From the NCBI GenBank assembly GCA_903813345.2, contig CAIIXF020000001.1, forward strand, positions 10,788,001 to 10,852,000: a stretch of DNA of 64,000 nucleotides. The letters are read 5' to 3'. Shown one piece after another: positions 8,083-14,000 of this stretch. Position numbers and translations under genes: made by a program. Each line of letters begins with the position of its first letter. Position 1 is the first letter of the stretch. Source of the stretch: Owenia fusiformis (lineage: Eukaryota). The notes under the pieces are model-generated. The model ran no database searches and had not been told where the DNA came from. It saw only the letters and a program-made list of their open reading frames with translations.

Positions 8083-11000
8083 CTGAATATATAGAAGGTT
8101 TTAAGAAAGAATAAGACACAGTAATTTCAAAAGGTCGAGAATGAGTTGCATGGTGTTTTGAAGAAACAATACAATGTTGATAGATATAATATATCATTTA
8201 GTACCTCATTTTGGTTTTTACTTTCTACATGTACAATGTATTTTTAATTATTTTTAAAACATGTTGGATCTAACATGTTTCATCAATATTCCTGGCTCTC
8301 CCTTTATATCGCAATAATATATACATTAATTAAATGCACTCTCCAGATTTACTCTCCCAGTTGCTGAAAATGTGTAATGACTCAATCTGGTTGTCTTAGT
8401 CTTATTAAGACTACATCATGTTCTTACCAGAAGGTTCACTCTCAGTTGATGTGCTAGGAGATTGACTACTTTCCTTGGACAACCTAGTCCATGCTTTTCT
8501 TCCTCTTGGTGCTTTGCTTATAACTCCCATGTGGGCTGGAAACCTGCAAATACAAGGGTTTACTATATAAGCACAGCAGTGTGTCTGTCTGGTTTTCTCC
8601 ATTAAGACTGTTCAACCCCAAAAAAATTGAGCCTCTAAATTCAAAAATTGGGCCCAAATTTTGAAAACTTAAGGCCTGTGTAATGCCAAAAAGGCCCACA
8701 TATTGAGGCCCTACAATTTTTAGAGACTTGGAGACAGCTGGAACTGTTGAGCCAAACAAATTAAAAATATTCACTTAAAAAAACATGTGCAAATGCAGGA
8801 TATTTGATGTTTTGTTTAAATTGACTCTGTCTCTGTCAGAGGTTCAGGTCTTCTGCCCTTGCTATCAGTGTCCATACTGATATGCATGTATGATAAAGCC
8901 ATTGAGGGTTTATGTAAGATAACAATGCATACCTATGCACATTACCTTGAATGAAGGAATTTATCTTCATATGACCCATTCATTCACTATCAGGTATGCT
9001 GTACTTAGTGATATAATCAGCCTGATAGGGGACATTAATGTTTGCTTTATTAGTGTATACTTGTACACATTGCCATGCCTTTATTTTACATATGCTGACT
9101 GGTCACTAGATAATGAGTCATTTTCTCAAGTCGAATGTCTTTGAATATTAAATGTGTACATTTGGAAGTTCTTTGAGTTCTTAAAAGGAGCCACAATGAA
9201 ATACATATTTTATACAGTCTTCATTCTAGCAATTACAAAATATATTACTGGCCAAATTGCAAAATTCCCAGAGATTGATACAAGCGGTCCAATGAGAGGA
9301 GAAGTGCACAAACAAAATGGAGCTGTACCCTCAAATGATGCTGTGAACAACTCTAATCCAGACCACCCAGAAATAGAAACAACATATGGCAGACTGAGGG
9401 GAGCTGTAATAAACCAAACCGTAAAAGCTGGTTCTGCTCCAGACAATATGGTTCAATTTACCAACTTTCTAGGTAAGTATTTCAACAGGCATGTACTAAG
9501 AGACTGAAAAATTGTAAAACCAGGCCATAAACTGTTGTGATAATAATCTTCTCAAGTACTGTTATAAGCACAGTGCAGGTCTGGGAAAGGCAATAACTTA
9601 TCTACATTTTCCCTAGGTATACCTTATGCTGCTCCACCAGTTGGAGAGTTGAGATGGAGACTTCCCGAAGCTCACTCAAGTTGGAATGGTACACTTGATG
9701 CCACACACTATGGTGCTAGTTGTCCCCAGAGAGTTCAACCTTTATTCATAGATTATGATGACAGAAACATTTCAGAGGATTGTCTTTTCTTGAATATCTT
9801 TAGTCCTATAGACTATACTCAGAGTCAGTCTGAGTTGAGGATGGCTAACCTCACCGTCATGTTTTACATTCATGGAGGTGCTTTTGAGGATGGTGATGGG
9901 ATTTACTTTGGTGGCTTTTTAGCTGTAACCCAGAATGTGATTGTGGTCACAGTTAACTATCGCCTGAATGTGTTTGGATTTTTGTCAACCGAATCTGCAA
10001 CAGCAGGTGGTAATTATGGACTATATGATACTGTAGAGGCGTTAAAATGGGTCCAGAGTAACATTAGAAACTTTGGTGGTAATCCAGATGCGGTGACAAT
10101 ATTTGGTGAATCAGCAGGAGGTGCTTCAGTTTCAAATCTAGTGCTTTCTCCATTGACAAAGGGTCTTTTTCACAGAGCTATATCTCAGAGTGGTGTAGCA
10201 ACAAGCCCTTGGGGAGTTGCATCCCCTGGAGCTCCAGCCAAAATGGCAGAGGCAATAGCAGAGAAGCTTAGCTGCTCAACTGATAATGAAGAAGCAATGA
10301 TAGCTTGCATGAAAACAAAGTCTACTCAAGCTGTCAGAGATGCATATGAAACTATTAAGATTGAATTACCATCATCTTATCCTTCTTTCAAAATAACACC
10401 CACACCAGTTATTGATGGAAAACTGATAACTGATCACCCAAATAATATACTAAAATCAGGAAACTTTGAGAAAAGAGATTATCTTGCTGGATACAACAGT
10501 GATGAAGGATATTTCCTATGGGGACTTGAGGGCCTTATTGGTGCAAATCTTTATGAAGGTATTACCCAAGATCAACTAGAAGCTTTCATTGGATTCTTTC
10601 AGAATCAAATACGTTATCCAACAGAAACAAACACAAATAACTTCCGCAAAGCTGTTCTGATGTACTACAATGATTTCAATGCTGATCCTAATGAGTCTTC
10701 AACCATTCGCAGTAAAGGATGCTATGACTATATCACAGATCTCTTCTTTGCATATAGTACTCAAACATTTGCTGACTACTACTCAAAGAAATCAAATATG
10801 TATCTATATTTCATGAATGCAAATATATCAACACGATTCCTGAAGGACCAACCACAAGGGAGGCCAGATTATATATTATCTTCCCATACAGATGATATAC
10901 CATATGTATTTGGTTTCCCTAAACATGCACCGACAATGAATGCAACAATCGAGGAGCAAGAACTCAGTGGATATTTCATGGAGGCATGGGCCAACTTTGC

Positions 11001-14000
11001 AAAATTTGGGTAAGACTTTCATGGGCAGGACAAAATGGTGAAAACATACAGTTATAGTGATGTGAAATAAGAAAACACAAATGGCAACATAAGTAAAAAA
11101 CCAAACAGATCCATTGACAGGTAGAAACAAATTCAATATGAAAAAAGATTATAAACAGAATTGAGATTATTAATGATTAATTGAATATGATTTGTTGCCA
11201 TATTTCATTGCAGCAATCCAAATCCACGATCGAACAGTTCAACTTCATTCAACCACCACACAACATGGAAACTCTACAATGAGTCAACCAGGGTATACCA
11301 GCAATTGACCACACCAGTGTCAGATATACAGAACATAGAAAATGTGAACAGGGCTAGAATGGCATTCTGGGGTGACTATATTTACGAAGTAGTTGATGTA
11401 GAACCTGAAATATGTGAAGGTAAGCAGTTTATGAGTTTATTTAAGTTATGAAATTATTATTTCACAAGTTTAAAGGACCAGATAGTGTATTGCAAATGAA
11501 TTGGGACAGTATTAAGTAATATAGGACCACACTTTCCTCACTTTACATTAGAACAATAATCTATTACTTCAACAGATGGTGAAAGCGAACAATACAAAAC
11601 ACAGACAATAATACCTTAGCAAAAATGCCAAATGGAAAGGACCAACAAATTGTAAGGAAACCTAGCAGGAAAAGCAAAAAGTGCAAACCTGCCATCAATC
11701 AAAAAGCCTAAAACCTTACAAAGTTGTATTGCTGTGAAAGAAATATACTTATTACATGTAAAAAAATTCAAGTATTTTGCATTCCCCTTATACCTTCTAC
11801 ATAAATTGTTTTTATTATATGTAGTTATAACAACTTCCAAGCCGGAGGTAGTCACTGGTGATCCCGATGTTACCACTGGTAACCCTAGCCCATCTCAGAA
11901 GCCTACAACAGTGGAATGTTCACAAACTTGTACTGATGCTATCAAGGCAGGGGCCGGAGTATCCATACAACCAGAACAAGTTGGACCCATAGTCTGGTCA
12001 CTCATGGGTAGATAAATCATTTTTTTATTTATGTATTTAACAATAGAAAGTCCTTCAAAAACCACTTTCGACAAAAAAAGTTTTACATATCGCATTTTTA
12101 TAACATTGAGTAAGACTACAATATAAGCCAAAGTGGTTTAAACTTAAAATGGGCCCTTTAATAAAAACTCATATAAATGAATCCCATAACATCAGCCAGA
12201 CTTTAATGTTCATACACAATAACTCAGTAAGTAGAGTAGGCTAAGGTAAATATGTATGCTAAATTGAATAAATAATTTGACAATGATAAAACTTGAGCTT
12301 TTCATGATAAACTAGTACATACTTAGACATGTCTTACTCTACTAATCTTAAATTAATCTTGAAAGCAACCAGTGAGTGTCATTTATTGAACTGAATTCAA
12401 ATAGAAGAAAATTAATCTAATACCATTTAATATCATTTATTGAAAAATGATGACACCAAGGCTTTGAATCCTGGTAAATTGAACACAATGAATGCAATTA
12501 GGTTTCATCAAAAAGTTATATCGTAATGTTGTGAAAATTGTATGTTTTGTTTTCAGGTGTCAGTGCTTTTCTGCTCATTCTAAGTCTAATTCTGATTGGA
12601 TGTATCATTAGTAAGAACAATATACTGGACAGGTTCAAACAAGAGGGCTCCTACAACTTTGGTATGAGGCATATGAATCTCAGTGACAGAGATTGATTTT
12701 ACATGAACTTTATATGGGGCCAATTAATCCAAAGGACAGCAGTAGTTTAAGAAATATTATATTGACTTTTGTTAATAAATACTCGTAGTACTAAGATATG
12801 AGGCATATAAGTGTTCAGTTGATGTAATGCCTTGGTCACATTTTCTCCGATTTTCACTACGGCGCCTGGCCCATCGAGTATTTGTTCAATACTGAATACA
12901 ATTTTGAACAAAATACTCACCAGCTGGGCACCAGTACTGAAAATCTGAGCAAATGTGACCAAGCATGCCAAAGCATTAGGGAAAGTGTTTTGGAGAATTC
13001 AAGCTATAAATGGTAAATTAGAAAACGAATTATTTACCTCGGAAATTGCTGGAACATTGGTTGTATAGGTATTCTGGGCTGAATTGAGGGACCAACAAAC
13101 CGAACATCACCTGTAAAACATTAATTTCACATGAGCATTCTAATATGATGCAATTAACTGCATCTCAAGTACTGTAAATTGCTTTAATTTGACGGCCTTT
13201 TTAATTTGGGGGATTAATGAAAACCGCAAAATTAAGTCTCCCAATTTTTTGAAAATGAAATTCCCTGGTATTTTCATCCAGTGTCCTTTCCATTACATGT
13301 GTTACCTTGCACAATAAAACTTGAGAGAAAATCTTGATTGAAATATCGATAAAATGTCCCCACTGGTTTTGATAAAACAATCTGATACCAGGAGGGATTA
13401 AATTGGCTTATCAGTGGCGGCGAGCTGTGGAGTGAGCAATACGATAGTTGATTCACCAAATTAAAATTCAAAATTTGCCCAACACGCCAAATTAAAGCAG
13501 TTTACAGTTATCACTTACATTTCCATTGTTCAACACGAAGCTGAAAATTTAAAAACCATTTCGGAATTCCAATGAAATTATGTAGAATATTATTGTTGAC
13601 ATAATATACGACATTTGTGTCACCTGCTTACTCATATTTCAATAAAGAGCTTTCATAAATAAATAAAATAAATAGCAGAATCACAGCTAGACACTGGCAT
13701 TAACATGACAATATGTTACCCTTGGTAAATTATTGGAAGTGGTAGGCCTACCGAAATTGTAACAATTTATTACATATGTTGAATGCAAATCACTAAATAT
13801 TACTGCAACTCATTAAAATAACTTTTACTATAAGAATCTGTCCCATTTCTTGGTGTTATAAAAATATTCAATGAGTCTTACCTGTTGTATTTGTGGGTGG
13901 TCTTAGTTTCACTGCAGGTAGCTGGGGTCTGATTGTTGGTTGGGGGTGTGCCGCTACAGGGGTCACATGACCATGGGGTATAGATACTGGTGCTCCAGGC

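Follow-up and report, generated by a model that had tools for sequence, protein, structure and literature searches.

Does a complete enzyme gene lie within a single intron of another protein-coding gene, and does such close packing tie the two together in function? We considered this question for a 64,000-nt stretch of the genome of the annelid Owenia fusiformis (contig CAIIXF020000001.1, positions 10,788,001 to 10,852,000; the window), in which a gene of the R3HDM/ARPP21 type is read from the minus strand and an esterase gene lies antisense inside one of its introns. In our judgement this is quite probably an ordinary opposite-strand nested pair, consisting of a host gene with R3H and SUZ domains and an independent five-exon gene for a membrane-anchored carboxylesterase in host intron 16. 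Nothing beyond position links host and esterase, and both gene models are already present in public annotation. A preliminary description of this locus had proposed a complete multi-exon esterase gene antisense within one R3HDM/ARPP21-like intron. Exon joining, the Pfam match, the R3H and SUZ domains and the relatives of the proteins all bear this out, and every coordinate it gave holds: the host exons, the 4494-nt intron, the arginine joint split between AG and G, the five exons from ATG at 9196 to TGA at 12696, and the AATAAA at 12774.

The esterase gene is carried on the plus strand (Table 1). When its five exons are joined by their coordinates, all four introns run from GT to AG, and the resulting 2199 nt give 732 codons without an internal stop, closed by the TGA at 12694–12696. 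The translation agrees letter for letter with P0001, a 732-amino-acid 'unnamed protein product [Owenia fusiformis]', and in a protein search exon 2 matched P0001 at 100% identity; since the five-exon translation is identical to P0001, exactly this model has already been annotated publicly. Exon 2 alone is an open frame of 481 codons in DNA of 37% G+C, and a frame of that length with a Pfam COesterase match at E 1.9e-135 is far beyond chance. From its ATG to the end of its poly(A) signal (9196–12779), the esterase gene is contained wholly within the host intron at 8544–13037, on the opposite strand. The fit is tight, with 653 nt between the ATG and host exon 17 and 258 nt between the end of the poly(A) signal and the host donor.

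The host is an R3HDM/ARPP21-like RNA-binding-protein gene. Its C-terminal exon, used as a query, matched an annotated Owenia fusiformis protein of 1146 residues, P0121, which contains an R3H domain at residues 207–263 (46.2 bits against a cut-off of 26.8, E 4.7e-12) and a SUZ domain at residues 284–336 (54.5 bits against a cut-off of 25, E 1.9e-14), and its R3H-SUZ region shares 55–64% identity with proteins named R3HDM1, R3HDM2 and ARPP21 from many animals (E 1e-50 to 1e-57). Intron 16 is the longest among the 17 coding-region introns of the host, as found by mapping P0121 back exon by exon. Exons 16 and 17 join in frame (...QQFPR, then FPAHMG...), with the arginine codon divided AG and G. 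RNA depth across 7401–7710 indicates that the 3′ untranslated region of the host extends below 7401.

RNA evidence came from two raw stranded runs of one study, X17 (about 6% read) and X19 (about 12% read), mapped on 7401–16700. Depth over the host exons is almost all of the class first_mate_on+, which calibrates this direction as minus-strand RNA. The joint 13038/8543 across intron 16, which the preliminary description had proposed as a check on the minus strand, was found in two reads of X17 and four of X19, all on the host strand. The joint 8428/8061 across intron 17 was found in six and 11 reads, also on the host strand. In RNA, intron 16 is removed as a single unit. Upstream in the host, introns 14, 13 and 12 were joined by 3 + 7, 0 + 7 and 0 + 3 reads (X17 + X19), respectively, all with CT..AC ends and in the first_mate_on+ direction.

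These reads bear directly on an arrangement in which the 3′ exons at 8543–7778 sit on a separate transcript and the esterase is intergenic, the first of two outcomes that the preliminary description had named as refuting it. Because reads join 13038/8543, that objection falls, and with the 8428/8061 joint also read in RNA the host 3′ exons lie on the same transcript as the rest. Over the two runs, six reads make the first joint and 17 the second, the annotated 1146-residue protein is continuous through these exons, and the reading frame is preserved over the joints. Nothing was found in favour of a separate transcript, the sole gap being the joint of intron 15 (13111–13881), which is absent from the RNA joints listed; here the evidence for the joint is the annotated protein together with the reading frame. 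We regard a separate transcript as vanishingly improbable. An acceptor at 8082 for the last host exon, also in frame, was considered and rejected, as 8061 is the site used both in the reads and in the annotated protein.

One part of the host model is less sharply defined. Exon 11 begins in a tandem array of 107-bp units (18974–19700, 6.8 copies, 98% identity), in which the splice acceptor, together with the first ~50 nt of the exon, occurs at six sites. Residues 424–439 of P0121 match the first array copy exactly, while the last copy, which runs into the remainder of exon 11, differs by Asn for Ser. The exact boundaries of exon 11 are ambiguous because its start is repeated in this way, and with several acceptors available the exon could start at alternative sites.

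Table 1. Features of the nested esterase gene, its host and the adjoining repeat (positions in the window).
Feature	Positions	Strand	Details
Esterase exon 1	9196-9472	+	ATG at 9196; putative signal peptide and N-terminal region; donor TAG/gtaagt; ends in phase 1; translation as in P0001
Esterase exon 2	9617-11009 (1393 nt)	+	Bulk of the predicted carboxylesterase domain: HGGA oxyanion motif, GESAG, Glu389, His516
Ser258 codon, esterase exon 2	10111-10113	+	Within GESAG
Esterase exon 3	11214-11419	+	C-terminal part of the predicted esterase domain
Esterase exon 4	11825-12007	+	Thr/Ser/Pro-rich stalk, Cys-x3-Cys, juxtamembrane motif; predicted transmembrane helix begins at 11989
Esterase exon 5	12557-12696	+	Remainder of predicted transmembrane helix (to ~12612), 27-aa tail, TGA 12694-12696
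AATAAA, candidate poly(A) signal of esterase	12774-12779	+	Sequence
Host coding span	7778-32269	-	P0121, 1146 aa, 18 coding exons; coding 32269-7781 plus stop
Host coding exon 16	13038-13110 (73 nt)	-	AG acceptor, GT donor; annotated protein, RNA reads
Host intron 16	8544-13037 (4494 nt)	-	RNA joint in 2 + 4 reads, CT..AC on + strand; holds the entire esterase gene
Host coding exon 17	8428-8543 (116 nt)	-	AG acceptor, GT donor; annotated protein, RNA reads
Host last coding exon	7778-8061	-	Acceptor 8061, stop 7778-7780; joint 8428/8061 in 6 + 11 reads
Palindromic MITE-like high-copy element	12825-12963		Between esterase poly(A) signal and host donor; 30-nt arms, 90% complementary

The product of the nested gene is a predicted type-B carboxylesterase with its triad (Ser258, Glu389 and His516) and oxyanion hole intact. 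The Pfam COesterase profile (PF00135) matches residues 57–609, scoring 453.2 bits (cut-off 27), and is covered from position 2 to 515 of 515. The best solved relative is the cholinesterase 6emi (4.1e-85), with neuroligins and acetylcholinesterases next in rank. The GESAG motif at residues 256–260, the serine of which (Ser258) is the established catalytic nucleophile, aligns with FGESAG of 6emi and with the same motif in seven other Owenia paralogues. Glu389 (in NSDEG), His516 (in SSHTDD) and the oxyanion motif IHGGAF at 177 fall in the equivalent columns of the family, and against 6emi the GESAG, the DEG and the catalytic histidine are all in register. In the motif alignment the esterase and the seven Owenia paralogues were set beside one neuroligin, one bile-salt-activated lipase and one Ces2e-like protein, and the triad and HGGA columns were intact in eight of the eight Owenia paralogues aligned.

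The protein is also likely to be held in a membrane. Its N-terminus is hydrophobic and, judged by eye, resembles a signal peptide. A single hydropathy peak was found at about residues 677–710 (Kyte-Doolittle 2.75, with no other above 1.8); on its N-terminal side this predicted helix has a Thr/Ser/Pro-rich stalk and a Cys-x3-Cys motif, and on its C-terminal side a tail of ~27 residues. The stalk is probably glycosylated. Of the 11 N-x-S/T sequons of the protein, 10 lie before the helix. The esterase is probably a type I membrane-tethered, active enzyme, topology and activity both being read from the sequence, and it would act as an ecto-esterase or within the secretory pathway.

This architecture recalls the neuroligins, which likewise combine a cholinesterase-fold ectodomain, a stalk, one transmembrane helix and a cytoplasmic tail, and of which the solved members match the esterase at 1.6e-79 to 2e-78. 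The likeness does not extend to the active site or the tail. Neuroligin P0036 reads GSGAG, with glycine at the serine position, whereas the nested esterase retains the catalytic serine; the tail of P0036 ends in ...TTRV and that of the esterase in ...NLSDRD. A neuroligin identity was rejected on the presence of Ser258 and on placement in the tree outside the neuroligins, although the esterase does have the single helix. The catalytic members of the family, among them butyrylcholinesterase 6emi, CES-type carboxylesterases and bile-salt-activated lipase, share with the esterase the full COesterase domain, the triad and the oxyanion hole. Bile-salt-activated lipase also has a mucin-like C-terminal tail that resembles the Thr/Ser/Pro-rich stalk. 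Unlike these catalytic type-B esterases, the nested esterase is predicted to be anchored by a helix of its own, and it falls in an Owenia clade rather than in a named orthologue group.

A homologue search returned 7978 of 8000 scored candidates below E 0.001, of which 120 were listed. Among these, the top of the list after the self-match is mostly occupied by Owenia paralogues of 38–46% identity, and full-length matches from other species are ~30–39% identical. The closest relative among the matches listed is the Owenia paralogue P0002 (46% identity), which is encoded on another contig and has the stalk, juxtamembrane motif, helix and short tail in common with the nested esterase. In a quick maximum-likelihood tree, built from 33 rows picked by hand among the 120, eight Owenia esterases form one clade (SH-aLRT 98), within which the nested esterase is sister to P0002 (support 97), both branches being long (0.73 and 1.02). 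Three neuroligins make up a clade of their own (support 100), and the nested esterase lies inside the Owenia clade. By these comparisons it is one of at least eight predicted esterases in an Owenia expansion, and it is a putative old DNA-level duplicate within that lineage expansion. Origin as a processed retrocopy was ruled out because the coding sequence is split by four GT-AG introns, an argument already made in the preliminary description; DNA-level duplication rather than retroposition would account for the gene.

Whether the esterase is a living gene can be approached through its coding differences from two contig sets, X1 and X4. Nine of the 13 differences counted are synonymous and four non-synonymous, against an expectation of 22% synonymous for random single-base changes (binomial P = 3.6e-4; 4e-3 at an assumed 30%), and for the host nine of 14 are synonymous; the counts for both genes were drawn from 40 of 134 difference rows. 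A frame open over all five exons, an intact triad, the synonymous excess and the long paralogue divergence together support purifying selection on the predicted coding sequence. Among the four that are non-synonymous is Ser263Thr at position 10126, which lies five residues past Ser258 and was seen in X1 and in one X19 read.

It could instead be that the esterase does not work, being either an unexpressed prediction or a copy silenced so recently that it has yet to decay. Such a state would suit the lack of sense-strand reads in X17 and X19, the high-copy repeats in intron 4 and just past the poly(A) signal, and the record of P0001, whose cluster has a single member and whose listed sources are all annotation databases. 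It sits poorly, however, with a frame of 732 codons kept open over five exons with canonical splice sites, with the intact triad and oxyanion hole, and with the share of synonymous differences (9/13 of those listed against the expected 22%). The nearest paralogue is 46% identical, which means that this lineage has been kept open over a long divergence. We consider a non-working esterase very unlikely.

The silence of the sense strand nevertheless heads a group of observations that weigh against our preferred reading, the ordinary nested pair with a working guest. Sense reads of the esterase (first_mate_on-) amounted to zero in X19 over ten bins at 8951–12050 and one at 12361–12670, and in X17 the depth over the same bins was zero save for 0.08 in one bin, against depths of 1.4–9 over host exons in the same runs. 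No reads over the four esterase junctions or the poly(A) site were found in the portions of X17 and X19 that were read. X19 does show a depth of 0.24–0.49 in three bins over 9571–10500, but in the host direction, as host pre-mRNA would run. The contig sets X1 and X4 bear the label 'RNA?' and are present in 30 and 28, respectively, of 30 bins, but they follow the genomic sequence without a break through esterase intron 1 and are therefore DNA-like and uninformative on splicing. The public model P0001 may itself be an ab initio prediction. To these are added the small share of two runs from one study on which the RNA evidence is based, the missing intron 15 joint of the host, the quick tree with its hand-picked rows, and the partial set of differences behind the synonymous excess.

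An ordinary nested pair can accommodate the silence if esterase expression is confined to certain stages or tissues. The gene would then be driven by a promoter of its own in the ~650 nt separating the ATG from host exon 17, and would be transcribed independently of the host. The preliminary description had gone further and taken the packing to imply transcriptional interference or mutually exclusive expression. We did not find support for this step, as a host that is on and an esterase that is undetected fit stage or tissue restriction equally well.

In its fuller form, this alternative holds that host transcription and the antisense esterase promoter collide or silence one another, that the two genes are active in mutually exclusive cells, and that the arrangement is kept by selection. 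The host was indeed expressed and the esterase undetected in both RNA runs, the spacing is tight (653 nt separate the ATG from host exon 17, and 258 nt the AATAAA from the host donor), and interference of nested genes with human host transcripts is reported in PMC3192792. Two runs of one study cannot tell interference from tissue restriction, however, and no truncated or exonised host transcripts appear among the RNA results listed near the nest. On balance, functional coupling is unlikely. A still more specific proposal, that the nest is a regulatory device in which host read-through holds the antisense esterase off, the esterase is active where the host is silent, and the pairing is conserved in annelids or spiralians, is distinctly unlikely. 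If true, it would parallel the antagonistic relation of host and guest that is reported for the ARPP21/miR-128 pair of vertebrates.

Opposite-strand nested genes are common in animals. Intronic genes make up ~6% of D. melanogaster genes, as reported in PMC3786989, and in the human data of PMC3192792 about 63% of nested genes lie on the opposite strand and ~41% have a single exon. As to expression, PMC3192792 reports a negative correlation with the host for some human nested genes, and no correlation in a different survey, which covered 109 human and 752 fly pairs. The gene 2mit in intron 11 of Drosophila timeless2, like nested genes in humans, is a complete protein-coding unit within one host intron on the other strand, as is the Owenia esterase. 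The Owenia case differs from the fly and human ones in occurring in an annelid and in another gene pair, and the esterase has four introns, compared with the ~41% of human nested genes given as single-exon in PMC3192792.

The same host family also carries an intronic gene in vertebrates, where miR-128 resides in introns of R3HDM1 and ARPP21 (PMC5964322). In that case the guest is a microRNA, whereas the Owenia guest is protein-coding, stands on the opposite strand and would need its own promoter. MiR-128 is derived from its host's own transcript. No match to any Rfam family (microRNA, snoRNA or other) was found at the gathering score in the whole window. The LRRTM genes within vertebrate alpha-catenin genes offer another likeness, a membrane-protein gene inside a host intron, and the history of that pair has been traced across vertebrates, as described in PMC3933685. 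Our literature search found no published case of this particular pairing; searches on carboxylesterase with nested gene and intron returned unrelated insect work, and those on Owenia fusiformis with carboxylesterase were likewise unrelated.

Several repeats occur in and around the nest. The bin of the palindromic element just past the esterase poly(A) signal has a summed contig depth of 21333 and 12112, compared with ~20 nearby, and RNA reads cover the element in both directions, with numerous loose ends (at 12825, 12827, 12866, 12919 and 12960). A second high-copy repeat occupies part of esterase intron 4 (12051–12360; summed contig depth 13810 and 5902). Weaker depth excesses were seen at 8641–8950 in the esterase upstream region (141 and 60) and at 14841–15150 in and beside host intron 14 (1594 and 969). 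The esterase upstream region also contains an insertion/deletion polymorphism at 8832–8836, where X1 and X4 have 37 other letters replacing three bases. Host intron 11 contains a tandem repeat of 135-bp units (17293–17829, 3.9 copies, 74% identity), and a (CGGA)13 microsatellite is found at 18098–18149. Elsewhere in the window, a 269-codon open frame on the plus strand at 919–1728 is thioesterase-like (4HBT_2, 1.2e-08; Acyl-ACP_TE_C, 2.4e-05) and probably represents a single-exon gene convergent with the 3′ end of the host.

Beyond annotation the locus has little significance, and neither the nest nor the esterase clade would surprise a specialist. It is a clean and well-delimited opposite-strand nest in a slowly evolving annelid genome, with host splicing across the nest proven by RNA, and could serve as a test case for interference in nested pairs of animals other than flies and mammals. 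A further outcome is a small Owenia clade of membrane-tethered carboxylesterases, predicted to be catalytically intact, that are like neuroligins in architecture and not in active site.

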